A DNA stretch of 7,294 nt from the IMG/VR virus record IMGVR_UViG_3300000059_000050, positions 1 through 7,294 of that record. One strand, 5' to 3'. The position numbers and the translations under genes are program-made. Shown here piece after piece: positions 1-7,294 of this stretch (position 1 is the first letter of the stretch; each line of letters opens with the position of its first letter). The DNA is from a virus (Duplodnaviria > Heunggongvirae > Uroviricota > Caudoviricetes). The notes under the pieces are model-generated. The model ran no database searches. It saw only the letters and a list, made by a program, of their open reading frames with translations, and was not told the origin of the DNA.

Positions 1-157
1 CGGCAGGAACGACTCCGGACGGCAAACCGCGCATGCTTTTTGGTTCCGGCTCCACCAGCACCCTGCCACCATGGAATACCTGCATGGATTCACGACCTAG
101 CTTAACGATAACCAGCCCGAGTTCCGGTACCAGAACAGGTCGAAGTAATACCCGCAC
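1..157 (-). CDS. Hypothetical protein, 5' part only (runs off the window start); candidate start GTG at 155-157
   Basis: Minus frame is open from 157 to position 1 (VRVLLRPVLVPELGLVIVKLGRESMQVFHGGRVLVEPEPKSMRGLPSGVVPA...). GGAGG sits 4 nt upstream of the GTG, inside the last codons of the 159-431 ORF (stop TAA, 1 nt, GTG), a coupling-type junction. No recognisable motif. A plus-strand frame is also open across this region, so strand assignment is uncertain. Confidence 0.25.
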   Translation of the reverse strand, partial: MRVLLRPVLVPELGLVIVKLGRESMQVFHGGRVLVEPEPKSMRGLPSGVVPA

Positions 158-158
158 G

Positions 159-431
159 TTACCTCCAGATCCGCTGCTGGAATGTGCGCGATGGACGTGG
201 AGGGCGTTCGGAATAAGGAAGCCTGACGGAAATTATCCAGTGTCGGAAATCAAGACTGAGATCCTTTCTGACCTCGCATCCGCGCCTGCGGTAACACTGA
301 ATCAGCCATTCGGCCTGTTCTTCAGTGCATGGATCATGCTGGTACCAGTCAGTTTTAAAGACGTGTGAACGCCGCCCGTGCCGGATGGCAAGATCGGTAT
401 CAGAATTGTGAAATTTGGTTTTGTGCGCCAT
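159..431 (-). CDS. Hypothetical 90-aa Arg/Trp/His-rich protein; position would fit a small DNA-binding or recombination-directionality protein, unverified
   Basis: ATG-initiated ORF whose stop is immediately followed by a GGAGG-preceded GTG of the next minus ORF. Composition is basic and Trp-rich. Weak SD, several rare codons and low purine bias at codon position 1 keep confidence low. Confidence 0.3.
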   Translation of the reverse strand: MAHKTKFHNSDTDLAIRHGRRSHVFKTDWYQHDPCTEEQAEWLIQCYRRRGCEVRKDLSLDFRHWIISVRLPYSERPPRPSRTFQQRIWR

Positions 432-502
432 CTGTTTTCTCTGCTGGCGCAGCAGGTGTCAGGTGTTCAGGCTGACGTGCGAATTGTAAACCAGGATGCT
501 CA

Positions 503-533
503 GAAAAAACAAAACCCGCCGAAGCGGGTTTTC
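503..533 (-). terminator. Rho-independent terminator, bidirectional, ending the antitoxin-Doc transcript
   Basis: Perfect hairpin AAAACCCGC-CGAA-GCGGGTTTT at 511-532. On the minus strand it reads CCCGC-UUCG-GCGGG followed by UUUUGUUUUUU, 14 nt past the Doc stop. On the plus strand it is followed by TTTTCATT. Confidence 0.65.
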
Positions 534-546
534 ATTAGAAGCGCCT

Positions 547-1032
547 TTAGTTTTGCTGTTCTATTTTAAGCTTGATAGTTTCATACAAAACAATAGTTGC
601 GCCTGTTTTACATAATTCCCGGCTGTCATACGCGCGAGACCAATAACACAACCAGTTCTCGAGATCTTCTCGAGTATAGGTTTTGCAGGCCAGTCCCTTT
701 GCCATTTCCACGATTTCATCGCCTGGTGCTGTTAACTCATAGCCATTCAACAACAAGAAGACGTAACCAGCCATCATAGCTGTTCGTTTGTTCGCATTAG
801 CAAACGGATGATTCTGAATCAGACTTTCAATCAATACCGATGCCAGTACAAACATGTCATTAGTCTGTTCATACCATCGAACCATGCTGGGACGGGCCTG
901 AGAAGAACTTAAGTTATCTGGACTCAGGACACCAACGGGCTCATCTGGCGTCTGTAATTCAATTAGGGAACGATTGATTTCAACAAGATCATCAACCGTA
1001 AGGTAATGCACTCCTTCAACAATCTCAGCCAT
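547..1032 (-). CDS. Doc-family (death-on-curing, Fic/Doc fold) type II toxin, about 161 aa
   Basis: Translation contains HPFANANKRTA, matching the Doc signature H-x-F-x-(D/N)-A-N-K-R (P1 Doc has HIFNDANKRTA). Start taken at ATG 1030-1032 (MAEIVEGVHYL...); the track ORF begins at a TTG at 1041. Lies 18 nt downstream of a small ORF, the usual antitoxin-toxin layout. Confidence 0.8.
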   Translation of the reverse strand: MAEIVEGVHYLTVDDLVEINRSLIELQTPDEPVGVLSPDNLSSSQARPSMVRWYEQTNDMFVLASVLIESLIQNHPFANANKRTAMMAGYVFLLLNGYELTAPGDEIVEMAKGLACKTYTREDLENWLCYWSRAYDSRELCKTGATIVLYETIKLKIEQQN

Positions 1033-1050
1033 AGAGCACAATACCCATCA

Positions 1051-1230
1051 TTACACTTTTGAAAGTTCTTCCATGGCTTTCTCATAACGAGAAAAACCGA
1101 AATCAAAAGCATTTTTCACTTGTTCACGATGTGCGCAGTTTTCATCAATCGCTGGGCGAGGGACTGCCACAACGCTTTTATCGCGAGGCGGAATACTCAA
1201 CCGCGTGTGTTTTTTGATTGGGCAGCTCAT
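1051..1230 (-). CDS. Putative antitoxin partner of the Doc toxin, about 59 aa, family unassigned
   Basis: Small ORF directly upstream of the Doc gene on the same strand. ATG at 1228-1230 is preceded by AAGGA (MSCPIKKHTRLSIPPRDKSVVAVPRPAIDE...); the track ORF starts at a TTG 48 nt further upstream. I do not recognise it as Phd/YefM-like; the call rests on position and size. Confidence 0.5.
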   Translation of the reverse strand: MSCPIKKHTRLSIPPRDKSVVAVPRPAIDENCAHREQVKNAFDFGFSRYEKAMEELSKV

Positions 1231-1293
1231 ACTAATGAGTCCTTTTGTTTTCCGATTATTGGCAAAGCCATGCACCAAATTTGATACAAAATA

Positions 1294-1341
1294 GATCTGT
1301 TTGAGATCCTTAGGATAGTCTAATGGTAGCTAAAATTACAA
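1294..1341 (-). promoter_or_regulatory. Candidate promoter and operator of the antitoxin-Doc operon
   Basis: On the minus strand: TTGTAA (plus 1336-1341), 18-nt spacer, TATCCT (plus 1312-1317), then inverted repeat GATCT-gtttg-AGATC (1294-1308) near the predicted start site. Lies between the upstream terminator and the antitoxin start. Read by eye only. Confidence 0.25.
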
Positions 1342-1355
1342 CCTCATAATGCGAC

Positions 1356-1376
1356 GAAAAACCCGCCGAAGCGGGT
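1356..1376 (-). terminator. Rho-independent terminator downstream of hok
   Basis: Minus-strand RNA reads AACCCGC-UUCG-GCGGGUU followed by UUUUUCG. The 19-nt core AAAACCCGCCGAAGCGGGTT is identical to the hairpin at 511-531. Confidence 0.55.
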
Positions 1377-1447
1377 TAAGTGCGGGTGCGTTGAGGATGC
1401 CTGACACATCAGAGGTGGCGAGGGATTTCTCCCTCGCCTGGTCACTC

Positions 1448-1603
1448 TTACTTCTCAGATTCGTAGTCTACGAAGACAGCGACCTCCGTCTGGCCGGTTC
1501 GGATTCGTACCTCGCAGAGGTCTTTCCTCGTTACCAGTGCCGTCACTATGACGGTTAAACAGATGACGATCAGGGCGATTAACATCGCCTTTTGCTGCTT
1601 CAT
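1448..1603 (-). CDS. hok: Hok/Gef-family type I membrane toxin, 51 aa
   Basis: MKQQKAMLIALIVICLTVIVTALVTRKDLCEVRIRTGQTEVAVFVDYESEK is near-identical in pattern to chromosomal HokD/RelF-type Hok peptides as I recall them (TM helix, then RKxLCEVRxxxGxxEVAxF). ATG at 1601-1603 is preceded by AAGGAGAAG. The track ORF 1448..1660 is an in-frame extension from an ATG 57 nt upstream. Confidence 0.9.
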   Translation of the reverse strand: MKQQKAMLIALIVICLTVIVTALVTRKDLCEVRIRTGQTEVAVFVDYESEK

Positions 1604-2104
1604 AGCCTGCTTCTCCTTGACCTTTCGGTCCGTAAGAGGCAATCTATATGTGACGAGCATATAGGGGCCTCACTTCGATTTATAGTCGGGTGGGGCTTTT
1701 CTCTATCTGCCTTGCAGTGGCATGCCCGAGACAGATAGCCTCAAGCACCCGCAGCAATTCTAACTATCCAATACATCACTGCCAACACTTTAAACTCTCG
1801 CCCTTTAAAACAAGAACAAAATTCAACCAATCAGCATTGGACGCATACTCATATCCTAGAGAAAACGACTCTTTCTGTACTATCTACATCCATTTGATTT
1901 ATAAGCATTTGCCGCTTGCCATAGCCGCACAATGACAGTTTGCCATTTGATGTCAATAGATAAAAACGATCATTTTCAATGAGTTACATACTTGCAAGGC
2001 GTTGCACATCAGGCCCGATTGCATCAGTATCAAAAGATAACAGATGGTGCATTACTGCCACCTCGCCTTAATGTTCCAGAACTATTCAACTTGAGGAATT
2101 TTCA
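1604..2104. promoter_or_regulatory. AT-rich divergent intergenic region: expected hok leader and antisense control region, plus the promoter of the KilA-N gene
   Basis: About 500 bp with no convincing ORF and visibly lower GC than the flanks. Hok loci are known to carry long structured leaders and a short antisense RNA; here these are inferred from position, not seen. Several -35/-10-like hexamers are present but none could be assigned with confidence. Confidence 0.35.
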
Positions 2105-2878
2105 ATGACATCCTTTCAATTATCTTTGATTTCTCGTGAAATTGACGGCGAAATAATACATTTACGTGCCAAAGATGGTTACATAAACGCCACATCAATG
2201 TGTAGAACTGCGGGCAAACTGCTCTCTGATTACACTAGACTCAAAACCACTCAAGAGTTTTTTGACGAATTATCACGCGATATGGGAATTCCCATATCGG
2301 AGTTAATTCAATCATTTAAAGGTGGAAGACCTGAAAACCAAGGGACGTGGGTGCATCCTGATATCGCTATTAATCTGGCACAGTGGCTATCGCCCAAATT
2401 TGCAGTCCAAGTTTCAAGATGGGTTCGTGAATGGATGTCAGGGGAAAGAACTACAGCAGAAATGCCTGTACATTTAAAACGGTACATGGTTAATCGTGGT
2501 AGAATTCCTCACACGCACTTTTCTATTCTTAATGAACTGACATTCAACTTGGTTGCACCTCTCGAACAAGCAGGGTACACACTCCCAGAAAAAATGGTTC
2601 CTGACATTTCACAAGGAAGAGTATTTTCACAATGGTTAAGAGATAATAGAAACGTAGAACCCAAAACATTCCCTACCTATGACCATGAATATCCCGATGG
2701 TCGCGTATACCCAGCAAGGCTGTACCCAAATGAATATTTAGCAGATTTCAAAGAACATTTTAACAATATTTGGTTGCCACAATATGCCCCGAAATACTTC
2801 GCTGACCGGGACAAAAAGGCTCTCGCCTTGATTGAAAAAATTATGCTACCTAACCTCGATGGCAATGAACAGTTCTAA
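2105..2878 (+). CDS. KilA-N domain protein (APSES-type DNA-binding N-terminal domain) with an unrecognised C-terminal domain, 257 aa
   Basis: N-terminal about 110 aa (INATSMCRTAGK...GTWVHPDIAINLAQWLSPKFAVQVSRWVREW) matches the KilA-N pattern found in P1 KilA and Bro-N proteins. SD GAGGAA lies 6 nt before the ATG. It is the only well-supported plus-strand gene, is AT-rich, and is followed by a strong terminator. Confidence 0.8.
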   Translation: MTSFQLSLISREIDGEIIHLRAKDGYINATSMCRTAGKLLSDYTRLKTTQEFFDELSRDMGIPISELIQSFKGGRPENQGTWVHPDIAINLAQWLSPKFAVQVSRWVREWMSGERTTAEMPVHLKRYMVNRGRIPHTHFSILNELTFNLVAPLEQAGYTLPEKMVPDISQGRVFSQWLRDNRNVEPKTFPTYDHEYPDGRVYPARLYPNEYLADFKEHFNNIWLPQYAPKYFADRDKKALALIEKIMLPNLDGNEQF

Positions 2879-2883
2879 ATGAT

Positions 2884-2911
2884 TAGCCAGCCCCATAGGG
2901 GCTGGCTATTT
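2884..2911 (+). terminator. Rho-independent terminator of the KilA-N gene
   Basis: Perfect 11-bp inverted repeat TAGCCAGCCCC-ata-GGGGCTGGCTA (2884-2908) followed by TTT, 6 nt after the stop codon. Confidence 0.7.
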
Positions 2912-2918
2912 AGTATAG

Positions 2919-3002
2919 TCATCCCCATCGGCAAATCGAATACACAACCAGCGCCACCGCCATCGCAATTCCTGCCGTTGTGAATGCTTCAGGCCAGGTC
3001 AT
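2919..3002 (-). CDS. Possible 27-aa hydrophobic micro-peptide (MTWPEAFTTAGIAMAVALVVYSICRWG)
   Basis: Not in the ORF track (below its size cutoff). Its ATG overlaps the TGA of the upstream 191-aa gene as ATGA. One predicted TM-like segment. Ends 8 nt from the 2884-2908 hairpin. Could be chance. Confidence 0.25.
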   Translation of the reverse strand: MTWPEAFTTAGIAMAVALVVYSICRWG

Positions 3003-3574
3003 CGTAAAATATCCTCCGCGCTTATCAGTCCGTTTCGCTTCAGGTAGACCATCGCCTTCTCCGGTAATTTGCAGTTCGGCTTCGCTTTCCTCAATTGGCT
3101 AGCCAGTTGTTTAATCAGCATTGTTAATTCCCGTACCTGAACGTCCCCTTTGGTATCCTCATTGGTGAGGATACCATCGCCTTTCCCCTGAAGCATGGCG
3201 GCGCAGCAGGCGTTCCATGAGATTTCCTGAAGGGAGCGACGAATCTGTGTGCTGCATATACTCCTCCCTGACTCCTGGCTGTTAAACCATGTTTCAAATT
3301 CCGGCACTACCGTCGCTGGCGGGGCGGTGTAAAGTGGAACAACTCGCCCTCCCCATTGCTTAACACTACTCTCAGCGAACACTAAATGCTCAGCCCGATA
3401 ATACCCGGGGGCATCAATATCTTTTCTTTCGCTATCCCACATGTAAACCACCGGCTCTGCTTCCAGCGATGCCAAAGCAATCCGTGCCACTTCCATTTGT
3501 TCGCTACGAGTAAGCCCGTTTTCAAGCGGATTTTTAATGAACAATTCAATACGTTCTTTGGTGATAGCGTTCAT
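2999..3574 (-). CDS. Prophage early-region protein of unknown function, 191 aa; paralog of the 3578-4000 product
   Basis: AAGGAA lies 6 nt before the ATG. Shares RIALASLEAEPV and V(V/I)PLY-x-x-PPA motifs and a similar C-terminal helix with the adjacent 140-aa protein, with an inserted segment of about 60 aa. Confidence 0.7.
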   Translation of the reverse strand: MNAITKERIELFIKNPLENGLTRSEQMEVARIALASLEAEPVVYMWDSERKDIDAPGYYRAEHLVFAESSVKQWGGRVVPLYTAPPATVVPEFETWFNSQESGRSICSTQIRRSLQEISWNACCAAMLQGKGDGILTNEDTKGDVQVRELTMLIKQLASQLRKAKPNCKLPEKAMVYLKRNGLISAEDILR

Positions 3575-3577
3575 GTG

Positions 3578-4000
3578 TCATTCCTTAACCTGCAACTGCT
3601 TCTTAACCAGTTTACGTAGATGTGCCACAGCCATAGAAAGAGTTTCCACCGCTCGTTTATCCAGCTGTGGGGACAGAGACACCAGTTCGTTTATTGCGAT
3701 CTCAATGCCCTGTGCCTGCACTGTGGGAGCTGGCGGCACACGATACAGCGGAATTACACGACGCGGGTCTGCGTATTTATCTGGAGGACAAGGTAATAAA
3801 TAACCTAAACCAATTTGCTCAACATCTCGCAGTTCCTCGTCATCAGTCCATGCAACTGGTTCTGCTTCCAGCGATGCCAGCGCGATACGAAACACATTGG
3901 CAAGCAGGCTGCTTGAAGATTGGTTATCGTGCGCCGGGTCGCTCAGGAAACCAGTGATGAATGATTTAATTTCCGCGTTTTCTCTGGTAGTAGTGGTCAT
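3578..4000 (-). CDS. Prophage early-region protein of unknown function, 140 aa; paralog of the 2999-3574 product
   Basis: Start ATG overlaps the stop of the upstream gene (ATGA). Motifs RIALASLEAEPVAW and RVIPLYRVPPAPTV. Confidence 0.7.
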   Translation of the reverse strand: MTTTTRENAEIKSFITGFLSDPAHDNQSSSSLLANVFRIALASLEAEPVAWTDDEELRDVEQIGLGYLLPCPPDKYADPRRVIPLYRVPPAPTVQAQGIEIAINELVSLSPQLDKRAVETLSMAVAHLRKLVKKQLQVKE

Positions 4001-4206
4001 TTGTTAATCCTCAAAACTTTATGCCCGGGCGCAAAAGCACGTGTTTTGTCTTTACTTATTCGCCACCCGTCTTTACGGGCCTCTTTTGCACAACCAGACC
4101 ATGACGTACCGATATACTCACCGAAGTCTGGCACTGGATATACACCTTCCGTACACTGGCGGCAGTCACAATAGAGATGCATGGTGTAACTTGCGGCAAT
4201 AGCCAT
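3997..4206 (-). CDS. Small Cys-rich protein (C-x-C-x2-C ... C), putative zinc-binding, 69 aa; tandem paralog copy 1
   Basis: AAGGAGA lies 5 nt before the ATG. Near-identical to the 4817-5032 product (MxIAASYTMHLYCDCRQCT...GEYIGTSW.GCAKEARKDGWRIS.DKTRAFAPGHK). Four conserved Cys. Confidence 0.75.
   Translation of the reverse strand: MAIAASYTMHLYCDCRQCTEGVYPVPDFGEYIGTSWSGCAKEARKDGWRISKDKTRAFAPGHKVLRINK
4011..4206. repeat. Diverged direct repeat, copy 1 (about 196 bp; roughly 85-90% identical to 4837-5032 by eye)
   Basis: Aligned by eye without gaps to 4837-5032. Covers almost the whole Cys-rich gene; similarity continues into the upstream SD region. Confidence 0.8.
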
Positions 4207-4217
4207 ATCAGTCTCCT

Positions 4218-4595
4218 TTAGTGCGCATATAACAGTGATTTTTCCAGCGGTTTTGCTCTCCTGCGCTCTTCCCCAAGCGCATAACGTGCTTCTACCGGGT
4301 CTTTGTCTTCATATTCATAATTGACGCTTTTAACCATCGCTACACAGCACTCATTGCAGCATCTATAGGACATAAGCTCGCCATCAAATTTCCATGTTGT
4401 GCTGCGGTGTATTTCACCCTTTGAGATTTTTCCGGCGCATATGTGGCATGTATATTCACCGCGAGAGGTAACGATTTTATTCGATAACTCAATATCGAAT
4501 GGCGCACCAAAATCACCTTCAAAAAGATAAAAATCCAGAGCGTCTCCTAAATCTTGTTTATTGTATCTCTGCTGCTCTTTTGTGGTAATGGTCAT
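4218..4595 (-). CDS. Cys-cluster protein (CHIC ... CCNECC), putative zinc-ribbon, about 125 aa, unknown function
   Basis: Start taken at ATG 4593-4595 (MTITTKEQQ...), which lies 1 nt after the stop of the upstream membrane-peptide gene. The track's 155-aa version is an N-terminal extension that overlaps that gene in another frame. Confidence 0.65.
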   Translation of the reverse strand: MTITTKEQQRYNKQDLGDALDFYLFEGDFGAPFDIELSNKIVTSRGEYTCHICAGKISKGEIHRSTTWKFDGELMSYRCCNECCVAMVKSVNYEYEDKDPVEARYALGEERRRAKPLEKSLLYAH

Positions 4596-4596
4596 T

Positions 4597-4815
4597 TCAA
4601 CCTTCCTTATACGGATTAATTTTATTGTGCAGTGTGTTGAACGACGCCCATACCACGTCGTTATACAATTCAATAACTGGCTCAATTATTTTCCCGATTG
4701 CCCAGACAAAAATTAGCGGGGATATCGGTATCATCAACACGATAAACAGAATGAGAAACAAAAATTCTGTCGCTCTACTTTTTCGCGGATATTCTTTTCT
4801 GAATAATGTAGGCAC
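4597..4815 (-). CDS. Small membrane protein, 72 aa, one predicted TM helix, GTG start
   Basis: GTG at 4813-4815 is preceded by AGGAGA with a 5-nt spacer; the upstream TGA is 1 nt away. Hydrophobic core FLFLILFIVLMIPISPLIFVWAIG. Confidence 0.6.
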   Translation of the reverse strand: MPTLFRKEYPRKSRATEFLFLILFIVLMIPISPLIFVWAIGKIIEPVIELYNDVVWASFNTLHNKINPYKEG

Positions 4816-4816
4816 A

Positions 4817-5032
4817 TCACTCTCCTTTGTTGCTTCTCAAAATTTTATGCCCTGGCGCAAAAGCACGCGTTTTGTCGACGCTTATTCGCCACCCATCTTT
4901 ACGTGCCTCTTTTGCACAGCCAGCCCATGACGTACCGATATACTCACCAAAATCTGGCGACTGATATTTGCCATCCGTACACTGGCGGCAATCACAATAG
5001 AGATGCATGGTGTAACTTGCGGCAATACTCAT
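4817..5032 (-). CDS. Small Cys-rich protein, putative zinc-binding, 71 aa; tandem paralog copy 2
   Basis: GGAGG lies 4 nt before the ATG, which directly follows the TGA of the 119-aa gene. Same four-Cys pattern as the 3997-4206 product. Confidence 0.75.
   Translation of the reverse strand: MSIAASYTMHLYCDCRQCTDGKYQSPDFGEYIGTSWAGCAKEARKDGWRISVDKTRAFAPGHKILRSNKGE
4837..5032. repeat. Diverged direct repeat, copy 2
   Basis: Partner of 4011-4206, same orientation, 826 bp apart. Confidence 0.8.
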
Positions 5033-5392
5033 TCAGCCTCCTTTGATGCCTGTGTTTACAACCAGGCAGGCCTCCTTGAGTACCCAGTCAATAGCGTCTT
5101 TCCATGCTCCGGTTTCAACTGGCGGATTCTCACGCCGTACCTGTTCATAAAAGCGCACAGCTTTAACCAGTCCTTCTGATGACACCGGGGCTGGCGGGGC
5201 CGTGAATAACGCCTGAATTTCATAGTTCGGTCTGTCGTTACAATCTTCTTTTGTCGGGACATATTTCCAGTCACCAAACCACGACTTACCCTGAGAGTCC
5301 GTAACGCCTTTTTTCACGTAGCGATACCGCCATGCAACTGGTTTTGCCTGCCCTGCCGTTTCATGCCCTTCCTGATAATTAATCTCACTCAT
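5033..5392 (-). CDS. Prophage early-region protein of unknown function, 119 aa
   Basis: Start ATG overlaps the stop of the upstream small ORF (ATGA). N-terminus MSEINYQ is shared with the 5836-6360 product; KPVAW and ALFTAPPAPV motifs are shared with the 140-aa and 191-aa proteins. Confidence 0.7.
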   Translation of the reverse strand: MSEINYQEGHETAGQAKPVAWRYRYVKKGVTDSQGKSWFGDWKYVPTKEDCNDRPNYEIQALFTAPPAPVSSEGLVKAVRFYEQVRRENPPVETGAWKDAIDWVLKEACLVVNTGIKGG

Positions 5393-5565
5393 TCATCGCC
5401 CCACTCATCACAATATGCTTCGACCGGAGTTTTTCCTGCTTCATAATCATCACGCCATGCTTCAGCATCAGCGGCACTTCCACCGCGTAACTCTGCATAA
5501 TCCATTAACAGTTCATGCCATTCTTCAAAACTGGCGTTATATTTAGTTGAACCAAAATCAGCCAT
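5389..5565 (-). CDS. Small acidic protein, 58 aa (MADFGSTKYNASFEEWHELLMDYAELRGGSAADAEAWRDDYEAGKTPVEAYCDEWGDE)
   Basis: Not in the ORF track (below its size cutoff). Its ATG overlaps the end of the 60-aa gene (ATGGCTGA) and its stop overlaps the 119-aa start (ATGA). Counted 16 D/E against 4 K/R. Confidence 0.5.
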   Translation of the reverse strand: MADFGSTKYNASFEEWHELLMDYAELRGGSAADAEAWRDDYEAGKTPVEAYCDEWGDE

Positions 5566-5740
5566 TTTGTTCTTCCTCTTCGTCTTTTATTTCGTGATAT
5601 GAGTAATTGCAGTAGTTAAAGAAAATTTCTTTTGCTTCGTCATGAATTTCATCAGGTGTTGCGTCATCGTCCACTTCGAATACATCCTCAAAATCTCCAC
5701 CAGCTATTCCAGTTTCAATAATTACTTTGAACTTTCGCAT
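5558..5740 (-). CDS. Small very acidic protein, 60 aa
   Basis: ATG-initiated ORF (MRKFKVIIETGIAGGDFEDVFEVDDDATPDEIHDEAKEIFFNYCNYSYHEIKDEEEEQNG). Counted 19 D/E against 5 K/R. Coupled to the downstream 58-aa ORF. SD is weak and sits inside a hairpin. Confidence 0.55.
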   Translation of the reverse strand: MRKFKVIIETGIAGGDFEDVFEVDDDATPDEIHDEAKEIFFNYCNYSYHEIKDEEEEQNG

Positions 5741-5747
5741 TTCATTA

Positions 5748-5796
5748 CCGCCCTTTCAGGCGGCCTCCCGATGTTCTGAGGGTGCAGAAATCCCTC
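5748..5796 (-). other. Two intergenic stem-loops immediately upstream of the 60-aa gene
   Basis: Minus-strand RNA carries GAGGG-auuucugca-CCCUC (plus 5778-5796) and CCGCC-UGAAAG-GGCGG (plus 5748-5763). The second ends 8 nt before the start codon and includes the likely SD. Neither is followed by a U-tract. Confidence 0.4.
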
Positions 5797-5835
5797 CGGT
5801 TAAGGATTAAATTTTATTTACAACACTAAATTTAA

Positions 5836-6360
5836 TTATTCAGGCGCGCGAATCTGTTCCGCACAATGCAACAATGCTTCTGTCACTTCCTTAAGCGTCA
5901 CGGTATCGGCATCATCCAGTCCTGCAACTTTTGCGTGCCTGACAAACGCCGCGCGAAGCTCGTTAAACGCCACCGCCCGTACATCAGCCAGGAAAGCATC
6001 TGTAGCCGGGGTTTGCGGCATACCTCCGTCTGTTGCGCAGATATACGCATCAGATAGTTCATCCTGCTCGCCATCAAACACGTAGCAACTCTGTGCGATA
6101 AATTTATTCAGCCCCGCATTCTCCGCCGCAAGCGCCATGCGTTCTTTCTCAAGTCGGAAAATTTCAGTCACGTATTTGGCGTTTTCACCACCCTTGATTA
6201 ACTCGTTAATTCGTTTGCTTTTAATTTCCAGTTCATCCAGCAGTTCCAGCACAACCTGAGGTGTGGCTTTCATACGAAATGCCAGCAATTTTTGTGGTGT
6301 GGCTGCTATTTTTATTGCTTCTGCCGCCCCACGCAGAGCCTGATAGTTAATCTCGCTCAC
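5836..6360 (-). CDS. Ea22-like lambdoid early protein (tentative family), about 174 aa, GTG start
   Basis: Perfect AGGAGG (plus 6367-6372) lies 6 nt before the GTG at 6358-6360; the track's TTG start at 6390 is an upstream extension. N-terminus [14 protein letters not shown]...VVLELLDE... resembles Ea22-like proteins as I recall them (not verified). Central region looks coiled-coil-like. Overlaps the upstream gene by 14 nt. Confidence 0.7.
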
Positions 6361-7090
6361 TGGTTGCCTCCTGGCAAAGCTGGGCGACAATATCGCGATA
6401 TTTATTCAGCTCCCGCAGCGCGGCACAGACTCGCTCCCATTTCCGGATATCACTTTTCGCCCGACGCAGTTCGCGGTTTGCCTGTCGCAGCGATGGCAGA
6501 ACCAGATTATCCACTCGCTTCTCAAGCGGCTGCACAATGTCCGCCACAGTTTCTGTTTTAATATCTTCCTGTGTTGCAGCTTCCTGTACTGGTAACGCAA
6601 CACATGCAGGCTGAGGAAAGGCTTTACCATCAGTTTCCGCTACCGATGCCGCTTTCGGCTCTGCTGGTAAATTACCGCCCGGCATGCAGTAACGAAATTT
6701 ACCGTTCTGATTAACACGAATCAGACGACCTTTGCTGATTGCCATTGCCAGCGTTGAAGCCACTTTGCGGGATGCTGTACCGAACAGCGTAGCCAGTTCA
6801 TCCGCCGTTTGTGGTCCGCGTTGTTCAATCGTCGCGGTTAAATCGCACTCTGAGATTTTCGCTACTGTCGCCGTGGTGGTTTCTTCCGGCTGTTCTTCTG
6901 GCGCTGGCTGTTCCTGCTGAACGTTGTTATCAGCCACACGCCAGGTGTATACGCTTTTATCAACGAATCCAGCCTTTTTCAGTTCCCACAGCTCGTTCAG
7001 TACTTCTTCACGACTGATATCAAGTCGCGCAGCCAGCTCTACCGACGTGGCTTTTCCCATCGCTTTCAGTGCGTCAAAAACAGTCTCCAT
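6347..7090 (-). CDS. Prophage protein with two putative winged-helix-like segments, 247 aa, unknown function
   Basis: GGGAGG lies 6 nt before the ATG. Two similar helix-turn-helix-like stretches (around residues 1-50 and 90-140) are separated by an acidic, Pro/Gln-rich linker. The domain call is by eye only. Confidence 0.7.
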
Positions 7091-7122
7091 AAATTTCCTC
7101 CCGGTAAAAATTACTTCTCAAC

Positions 7123-7294
7123 TCAAACAAACCCAGCCGCTTTCCGGCGTTCATATTCCTGTTTCAGTAACTCAATTGGCGTTGGCCCCGACGGGCGTTT
7201 GGGTGCCGCCAGTTGTCGCCGGACTGGCGGAACGCCCAGGCCGTTACTAACATGCTTTGCCCATTTCGTCAGCTGCCGTTCTGCCAGCCGTTTT
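7123..7294 (-). CDS. Hypothetical protein, C-terminal 56 codons (5' end lies beyond the window)
   Basis: Minus frame is open from the window edge to a TGA at 7123-7125 (...KRLAERQLTKWAKHVSNGLGVPPVRRQLAAPKRPSGPTPIELLKQEYERRKAAGFV). The next gene starts 32 nt downstream with its own SD. Confidence 0.45.
   Translation of the reverse strand, partial: KRLAERQLTKWAKHVSNGLGVPPVRRQLAAPKRPSGPTPIELLKQEYERRKAAGFV

Follow-up and report, generated by a model that had tools for sequence, protein, structure and literature searches.

We analyzed a 7,294-nt stretch of DNA from a virus of the Caudoviricetes (IMG/VR record IMGVR_UViG_3300000059_000050, positions 1 to 7,294; "the window" below), in which two diverged copies of a small cysteine-rich gene lie in the same orientation on either side of two other small genes. 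The four genes occupy the minus strand and are read in the order Cys2, DUF4014, CxxC, Cys1. Cys2, the upstream copy of the repeat (positions 4817 to 5032), is an open reading frame (ORF) of 71 amino acids (aa) that matches phrog_926 over its full length (E = 1.4e-35). It is followed by a 72-aa gene with a GTG start (4597 to 4815), which belongs to DUF4014 (PF13198, E = 1.8e-25; phrog_1832, E = 6.9e-46), and by a gene of 125 aa counted from its ATG (4218 to 4595), called CxxC here for its CHIC and CCNECC clusters, which matches phrog_19515 and is distantly DUF7576-like. Cys1, the downstream copy of the repeat (3997 to 4206), is an ORF of 69 aa that also matches phrog_926 (E = 9.2e-37).

Genes of the phrog_660 family flank the four on both sides and are read from the same strand. 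Ahead of Cys2 stands a gene of 119 aa (p660_119; 5033 to 5392; E = 9.9e-43), the usual upstream neighbor of a Cys gene, in an order conserved in many loci; behind Cys1 stands one of 140 aa (p660_140; 3578 to 4000; E = 4.1e-20), the usual downstream neighbor of Cys1-type alleles. The gaps from Cys2 through DUF4014 and CxxC to Cys1 are 1, 1, and 11 nt, the stop codon of Cys1 overlaps the ATG of the next gene (ATGA), and the array is read as one tightly coupled polycistronic unit. Promoter-like and terminator-like sites on the coding strand did not exceed chance, and no Rfam family was found in the four-gene region. The exact proteins of the window are Escherichia coli proteins with consecutive accessions.

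The direct repeat

A repeat search of the window placed the Cys genes in a single two-copy family, a direct repeat of 210 nt (3997 to 4206 and 4823 to 5032) with 87% identity and a spacing of 826 nt; all remaining repeat families were of 35 nt or less, and no inverted repeats flanked the repeat unit. BLAST stretches the repeat by about 13 nt, to 4000 to 4219 and 4826 to 5044, taking in the Shine-Dalgarno sequence AAAGGAG(A/G)CTGA, so that gene plus Shine-Dalgarno sequence spans 3997 to 4219 in one copy and 4823 to 5045 in the other. The top 100-nt diagonal between the copies held 90 identities, against 47 to 52 in five shuffles. Similarity begins in the Shine-Dalgarno sequence just 5' of each ATG and stops at codons 66 to 69, that is, at the gene junctions. 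The original prediction, made from the letters of the window, that direct repeats of a Cys-rich gene bracket two genes is thereby confirmed, and the alignment of the copies bears out its placing of the repeat edges at gene junctions and Shine-Dalgarno sequences; the limits that it gave (4011 to 4206 and 4837 to 5032, 196 bp) located the repeat correctly and stopped a little before the genes' 3' ends.

Within the first 207 positions, 27 differ between Cys1 and Cys2, and 20 codons differ, 11 synonymously and 9 not (synonymous divergence, dS, 0.41; nonsynonymous divergence, dN, 0.087; dN/dS, 0.21). The blocks of exact identity measure 36, 24, and 17 nt, with three more of 14 nt; the two longest suffice for exchange of the RecA or Red type. 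Cys1 and Cys2 are old alleles, both intact and both under purifying selection, and with such a dS they are not the product of a recent duplication. Plus-strand ORFs within the repeat (e.g., 4001 to 4174 and 4827 to 4964) were rejected as genes, being antisense to conserved minus-strand genes whose dN/dS is 0.21.

Related prophages and the origin of the arrangement

The proteins of the window were mapped onto 112 loci and later onto 19 more (numbered with the prefix L), among which the same genes appear in several arrangements. In type A, which is very common and includes L0068 > L0067 of phage 933W, the order is p660_119 > Cys > DUF4014 > another gene. Type B reads DUF4014 > CxxC > Cys > p660_140 (L085, L086, and L130), and type C has DUF4014 > CxxC with no Cys gene (L088, L089, and L087, the last with the same arrangement as SE11, L004). 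Type D is an "empty site," p660_119 > Cys > p660 (L044, L055, L074, and others); relatives of this kind, with a single Cys gene and no cassette, had been named as a useful comparison when the repeat was first noticed, and they were found at the same site. In type E, CxxC stands alone in other early arrays, in 23 viral loci and in 12 loci of other genera (Erwinia, Pantoea, Enterobacter, Edwardsiella, Serratia, Xenorhabdus, Photorhabdus, and others).

Neighbor counts around the Cys and CxxC loci demonstrate that the four genes assort independently as early accessory genes. DUF4014 lies directly downstream in 44 of 80 Cys loci, the others having p660-type or different genes at that position, and none of the 80 has CxxC. 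Seen from CxxC, DUF4014 is the upstream gene in 5 of 28 viral loci and 5 of 40 loci overall (L085 to L089), a Cys gene is downstream in 2 of the 28, and neither is a neighbor in any of the 12 loci from other genera. A script that classed the upstream neighbors of CxxC called 34 of 40 non-membrane and 5 membrane, with 1 locus lacking an upstream ORF; the membrane calls were DUF4014 in L085 to L087 and L089 and an unrelated membrane protein in L123, and L088 stood wrongly among the 34 because a longer overlapping ORF was picked, DUF4014 indeed preceding CxxC there. Cys > DUF4014 is the only recurrent pairing among the genes, and it could, though we think this rather unlikely, mark a real two-component function.

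The whole arrangement was found in none of 5,426 complete E. coli genomes and in no INPHARED phage. CxxC is present in two of those genomes (SE11 and CEA224S), neither with Cys flanks, and the exact CxxC protein occurs in about 22 contigs of NCBI E. coli draft assemblies. Loci L125 to L129 and L131 carry Cys2 > DUF4014 > CxxC > Cys1 at 99.8 to 99.9% identity to the window, with differing replication modules and downstream joins and a breakpoint at about 3851, inside p660_140; the four-gene arrangement is thus inherited and not unique to the window. In L129 an insertion sequence (IS; positions 3972 to 4940 of that locus, with a 322-aa DDE_Tnp_1 transposase) breaks Cys1 at window positions of about 4156 to 4165, and the window bases 4156 to 4165 stand on both sides of it as an apparent 10-bp target duplication. 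Cys1 is therefore dispensable for prophage maintenance in that strain.

Other relatives add observations of their own. In L096 (about 716 to 950) a distant Cys match (38%) lies immediately upstream of a CxxC homologue (83%), a second, independent adjacency of the two genes in the order opposite to that of the window. L122, L123, and L124, from Xenorhabdus and Photorhabdus, have distant CxxC homologues (40 to 47% identity) beside what by eye look like lysis genes, with small hydrophobic ORFs resembling holins or spanins on the upstream side and lysozyme-like ORFs on the downstream side, unlike the early arrays of Escherichia and Salmonella. In type C relatives (L088, about 4383 to 4763; NZ_LR778141.1; NZ_CP166080.1) the place taken by Cys1 in the window is occupied by an HNH endonuclease gene, immediately behind CxxC or DUF4014; in Salmonella phage g341c an HNH gene adjoins the DUF4014 gene.

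Gene by gene, the nearest nucleotide relatives of the window belong to different loci. For p660_119 the nearest is L044 (98.9%); for Cys2 it is L005 (100%), where the gene is present in single copy, followed by L003 (99.5%); for DUF4014 it is L088 (100% over window positions 4833 to 4570); and for CxxC, Cys1, and p660_140 it is L085/L086 (99.5 to 99.8%; Cys1, 99.5%, the sole copy there; p660_140, 99.8%). Window positions 6400 to 4593 are collinear with type A (L005) and positions 4814 to 3448 with type B (L085/L086), the overlap being exactly DUF4014. What the window has beyond L055 and L074 is precisely one further repeat unit and two genes. The similarity of L088 to the window stops at the Cys1 ATG, and AAAGGAGAGTGATGTG precedes DUF4014 whether the gene upstream is Cys2 or the gene for a 158-aa protein found in L088.

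The Cys genes themselves record exchange. Informative sites scored in every Cys gene of the loci revealed patchworks of Cys1 and Cys2 types: the gene of L044 is Cys2-type over its 5' two-thirds and Cys1-type over its 3' third, that of L062 switches type between positions 84 and 109, and those of L043, L045, and L046 combine a Cys1-type 5' end with a Cys2-type 3' end. Which type a Cys gene has at its 3' end tracks the gene downstream of it, type 2 with DUF4014 and type 1 with phrog_660. Protein collections likewise contain chimeric forms (P0030, P0037, and P0038) and the tandem fusion P0080.

These observations are best explained by ordinary lambdoid mosaicism, to which we assign a probability of roughly 0.8: exchange at shared genes or junctions joined a type A left arm to a type B or type C right arm. 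The feature is a mosaic joint and not a discrete four-gene system. Related prophages hold the same small genes in differing orders, and homologous recombination within a shared gene or junction, between co-resident or infecting prophages, would join a p660_119 > Cys > DUF4014 type to a DUF4014 > CxxC > Cys > p660_140 type. DUF4014 and CxxC would thereby come to lie between two long-diverged Cys alleles that point the same way. Because the alleles are old, the genes occur separately, and the single-copy genes are patchworks, the repeat with its 826-nt spacing would be a by-product of recombination, neither an insertion scar nor part of a mobile element. The two copies could then serve as a substrate for more shuffling, in which a crossover between them would delete DUF4014 and CxxC and leave one chimeric Cys gene; chimeric Cys genes of the kind predicted by such a crossover exist in relatives. 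Module exchange by homologous recombination was one of two origins offered by the original prediction, and the empty-site relatives and the L044 chimera (5' Cys2, 3' Cys1) support it. A simple single crossover between types A and B in DUF4014 was considered and rejected: there is no clean switch of informative sites, and the allele is of the third type represented by L088.

Several points weigh against this account or limit its reach. The DUF4014 allele of the window is 93.6% identical to type A representatives and 90.4% to type B, and it matches the third type (L088) at 100%, so that the history calls for two or more exchanges or for parents outside the sample; the available alleles do not fix the exact donors or the sequence of exchanges. 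As for the single-copy chimeras, they may have given rise to the two-copy form instead of being deletion products of it. Independent assortment means that the genes can exist apart, not that they never cooperate, and the Cys > DUF4014 pairing is both frequent (44 of 80) and kept in 933W-type Shiga toxin (Stx) phages. As for function, a literature search found no experiments on any of the four families, zinc binding by the Cys protein (see below) is inferred from conservation only, and its structure model is of moderate confidence (predicted local distance difference test [pLDDT] score, 76.6).

The four genes might instead be one functional module that moves as a unit, serving exclusion, host takeover, or anti-defense, much as the original prediction suggested for a membrane peptide and a zinc-ribbon protein framed by paralogues. 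They are indeed contiguous, on one strand, and translationally coupled; several E. coli prophages with different flanks keep them at 99.8 to 99.9% identity; and they sit in an early accessory region near a BstA-like defense gene and hok/sok. However, each gene is found without the others. Conserved adjacency, as expected of an obligate module of membrane peptide and zinc finger, is confined to the 5 of 40 CxxC loci that DUF4014 precedes; the usual partner of DUF4014 is an upstream Cys gene (44 of 80), and CxxC is present in 0 of 80 Cys loci. Both complete E. coli genomes with CxxC lack Cys flanks, L129 retains the rest of the array with an IS in Cys1, and PADLOC matches none of the four proteins. 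The module as framed is thus unsupported, and we regard it as improbable.

Equally, the two-copy form might be ancestral, with the one-copy types A, B, C, and D derived from it by deletion through the repeats or junctions. The single-copy chimeras of L044 and L062 are what a Cys2 × Cys1 deletion would be expected to leave, and the exact blocks of 36 and 24 nt would permit such deletion. The two-copy form is rare, though (none of 5,426 complete genomes and about 22 draft contigs have it, whereas about 1,355 genomes bear a Cys gene), the parts of the window have their nearest relatives in different lineages, and types A, B, and C are not all obtainable by repeat-mediated deletion, leaving this history with little to recommend it.

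The second origin offered by the original prediction, tandem duplication of the Cys gene in situ followed by capture of DUF4014 and CxxC, fares worse still and is very improbable. The repeats are direct and in the same orientation, and tandem duplication of a Cys gene does occur elsewhere, in the two-copy fusion P0080 (134 aa). Recent duplicates would be near-identical and each other's closest relatives, but these copies differ by 13% (87% nucleotide identity; dS, 0.41), and for each there is another prophage that carries a single-copy allele at 99.5 to 100% identity beside a flank characteristic of it. Alleles of both types are widespread by themselves, and capture need not be invoked as a separate step when the normal place of DUF4014 is immediately behind a Cys gene. 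That the 826-bp unit is a mobile cassette, moved by site-specific recombination or transposition, the repeats being target or attachment sites that were duplicated, has next to no probability: the window does exceed L055 and L074 by exactly one repeat unit and two genes, but the repeats are whole, diverged, selected genes of 210 nt where short and identical target duplications would be expected, neither the unit nor its neighbors include a recombinase or transposase gene in the window or related loci, there are no terminal inverted repeats, junction positions differ among relatives, and the features of a transposon- or integron-like gene cassette are accordingly missing.

Protein families of the array

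None of the four proteins had been recognized in the original prediction. The searches assigned them to phrog_926 (both Cys proteins), PF13198/DUF4014, and phrog_19515, families that are already catalogued yet uncharacterized. No protein of the four matched a known defense or anti-defense family, and with PADLOC at E ≤ 0.1 neither they nor the flanking phrog_660 proteins gave a match, the only match being the separate KilA-N gene described below (BstA).

Both Cys proteins match the phrog_926 profile over its full length (1 to 69 of 69), and a profile search of 1.84 billion representatives returned 407 relatives at E ≤ 0.001 (representatives at 50% identity). The broad consensus of the family is MIxxGYxLxLYCDCxxC...ARxxGWxIxxDxxxCxAPGH. 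Cys1 has cysteines at C13, C15, C18, and C39, and the same four are present in Cys2, so that the earlier description of four-Cys proteins holds for both copies; it does not extend to the family, which conserves three. Among close relatives C13, C15, C18, and H62 are invariant and C39 is often V, T, or A, and the C-terminal knuckle alternates between [C/A]xAPGH and CPxC. The protein thus departs from a C4 zinc ribbon, with its four conserved cysteines in two knuckles. Since C39 varies while H62 is kept, we tentatively propose a single zinc site of C3H type, with C13, C15, C18, and H62 as likely ligands, in what may be a cytoplasmic zinc-binding protein of alpha/beta structure. If so, it would probably act as an adaptor or regulator, a role we suggest with little confidence.

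Comparison with described proteins yielded little for this family. Cys1 and Cys2 had no sequence match in Pfam, NCBIfam, PADLOC, or the PDB and no fold match; the NCBIfam search gave a noise-level ferredoxin hit only, and sequence and profile searches of the PDB with the Cys and CxxC proteins gave nothing usable. A likeness to the fibronectin type II (FN2) repeats of gelatinases, from the Cys profile against the PDB (whole-sequence E = 0.003 to MMP-9), was rejected: the score is the sum of three weak target repeats, each stretch having an i-E of at least 1.9, and the Cys positions do not correspond. A "Lar-like" C-terminal tail suspected in the fusion protein P0119 was dropped for want of a Pfam match.

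The domain is also found in other protein contexts. P0080 is a fusion of two tandem Cys copies, P0208 (154 aa) joins the Cys domain to an HTH_17 DNA-binding domain (E = 9.6e-7), and in P0037 and P0038 the first 31 aa of Cys2 are followed by a Cys-rich tail that is unrelated, with P0030 showing the reverse. A Cys gene is carried by about 1,355 of the 5,426 complete E. coli genomes; the exact Cys2 protein occurs in 99 E. coli contigs and the exact Cys1 protein in at least 1,000 contigs. Distant homologues occur in Kosakonia and Pantoea, where they have unrelated neighbors and are bounded by DnaB-type replication genes and NinB/NinE/NinG. A family of 407 clusters, always in early operons and present in 933W-type Stx phages, might be a new zinc-binding early effector with allele-specific targets, although we consider this rather unlikely. 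Such an effector could act in host takeover or anti-defense and could have a new fold, and prophages would then keep two diverged Cys alleles for their differing specificities.

The 72-aa protein is a bona fide member of PF13198, scoring 89.6 bits against a cutoff of 23.2 over residues 2 to 71 of 72. It has one hydrophobic segment (KD19 maximum, 2.96) and an N-terminal net charge of +4, and it may be a single-pass inner-membrane protein with its N terminus inside. Members of PF13198/phrog_1832 are about 72 aa long and come from Escherichia and Salmonella phages, including ES18, epsilon34, g341c, HK225, and D6. The label "released from the phage upon host infection" attached to DUF4014 is a propagated record and PHROG annotation only, for which no experiment was traced, and a literature search found no paper mentioning DUF4014.

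The CxxC protein matches phrog_19515 (E = 2.5e-18, residues 12 to 115). In the family alignment C50, C53, E61, H63, and C84 are invariant and C80 and C83 nearly so. Its score against PF24461 (DUF7576) is 21.1 bits, under the gathering cutoff of 27, and DUF7576 weakly matches 21 of 28 family members (best E, 1.6e-6), so that the protein would be at most a distant DUF7576 relative. The structure model (pLDDT, 81.9; core, 87 to 95) has a three-stranded sheet plus helices. Like zf-PARP domains, the protein has a Cx2C-x26-Cx2C spacing around a three-stranded sheet followed by a helix, and one BFVD match is labeled as a PARP-type domain; unlike them, its ligands would be CCCC and not CCHC, there is no Pfam zf-PARP match, and the invariant E61/H63 and C84 are extra to the PARP-finger-like part. 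The resemblance to PARP-type zinc fingers is weak; with little confidence, we suggest that the protein may be a zinc finger with a PARP-like topology, perhaps one that binds nucleic acid.

Genomic setting and comparison with known phages

From 7090 to 2999 the minus strand encodes, in order, DUF1627, an Ead/Ea22-like protein, DUF7167, phrog_519, p660_119, Cys2, DUF4014, CxxC, Cys1, p660_140, and a third phrog_660 paralogue of 191 aa (2999 to 3574). Downstream of the array lie a plus-strand KilA-N/BstA-like gene, hok with the sok RNA, and a Doc/Fic-like gene. In relatives the upstream side holds replication genes (DnaT/lambda-P type or IstB/DnaA-like, YdaU) and the downstream side DUF1367, DUF968, RusA, and Q; from these genes the region is an accessory early-gene stretch of a Rac/Qin/Stx-type lambdoid E. 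coli prophage, between the replication and hok/nin-type genes. The four genes may be early accessory genes co-transcribed with the replication-to-nin operon, and each may act on its own during early lytic development; we offer both suggestions with reserve.

The phrog_660 paralogues (191, 140, and 119 aa) have in common several short nucleotide repeats (families D3, D6, and D8), an "ALASLEAEP" motif, and "APPAP" linkers, and these modular proteins also appear to serve as recombination linkers. The sole plus-strand gene in the block (2105 to 2878) encodes a 257-aa KilA-N protein that matches the PADLOC model for BstA abortive infection (E = 6e-21, residues 119 to 238); the identical gene in L125 matches Pfam BstA_C. 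It is a prophage defense gene placed between the phrog_660 genes and hok, and it is missing from L128, L129, and L131, otherwise near-identical relatives. The hok/sok type I toxin-antitoxin locus occupies 1448 to 1750 on the minus strand, with the Hok ORF at 1448 to 1660 and the Rfam sok RNA at 1601 to 1750 (104.8 bits). Farther along the same strand, a 75-aa ORF (1051 to 1278) that could encode an antitoxin lies just upstream of the 164-aa Doc/Fic-like ORF (547 to 1041), and regions like the latter carry the label "type II toxin-antitoxin system death-on-curing family toxin" in E. coli records. Perfect 20-nt copies of AAAACCCGCCGAAGCGGGTT occur at 511 to 530 and 1358 to 1377; both are probably terminator hairpins.

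Accessory arrays of lambdoid phages, such as the nin and exo-xis regions, are shuffled by homologous recombination at shared genes and junctions. The modular theory of phage evolution is said to go back to Botstein and Campbell, and mosaic boundaries were reportedly the subject of work by Juhala and Hendrix; Clark et al., on HK620, and De Paepe et al. in 2014 are said to give background on lambdoid mosaicism. The window resembles such arrays in its small, tightly packed early genes, in breakpoints that fall at gene boundaries or in shared genes, in per-gene nearest relatives that lie in different phages, and in a position between replication and nin-type genes that is held even by distant homologues. 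It is unlike usual mosaics in that two diverged alleles of one gene were left 826 nt apart as a direct repeat, which is uncommon.

In 933W and VT2-Sakai, L0068 is the Cys-rich gene (94% aa identity) and L0067 is DUF4014 (94% aa identity), in the same order and spacing as in the window. In 933W the two genes belong to the leftward (pL) exo-xis region, where they have ea22-like genes on one side and xis on the other, and are not downstream of replication genes; 933W has a single Cys copy and no CxxC gene. The pair may be co-transcribed with the exo-xis region. A published paper modeling the exo-xis region and one on exo-xis of Phi24B do not treat ORFs of the L0068/L0067 type, and a literature search on L0066/67/68 returned unrelated matches only. 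Ea8.5 of lambda (PDB 2M7A) is a small zinc-binding, cysteine-containing early protein of the exo-xis region (PMC8614690). The Cys protein is like it in being a small cysteine-containing early accessory protein of lambdoid phages from the same kind of region.

The finding is a fresh instance of a well-known phenomenon, drawn from uncharacterized but catalogued gene families. It provides a clean example of lambdoid prophages reshuffling small early genes, for which public data contain the recombinant as well as candidate parental gene orders, "empty-site" forms, and alleles that are chimeric, and it cautions that direct repeats flanking genes are not evidence of a functional or mobile cassette. 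Its practical value lies in the gene families, for the Cys-rich, DUF4014, and PARP-finger-like proteins are all uncharacterized and cheap to test. The Cys-rich early gene in particular is very common: Stx phages carry it, as do about 25% of complete E. coli genomes, yet it is without a Pfam family.

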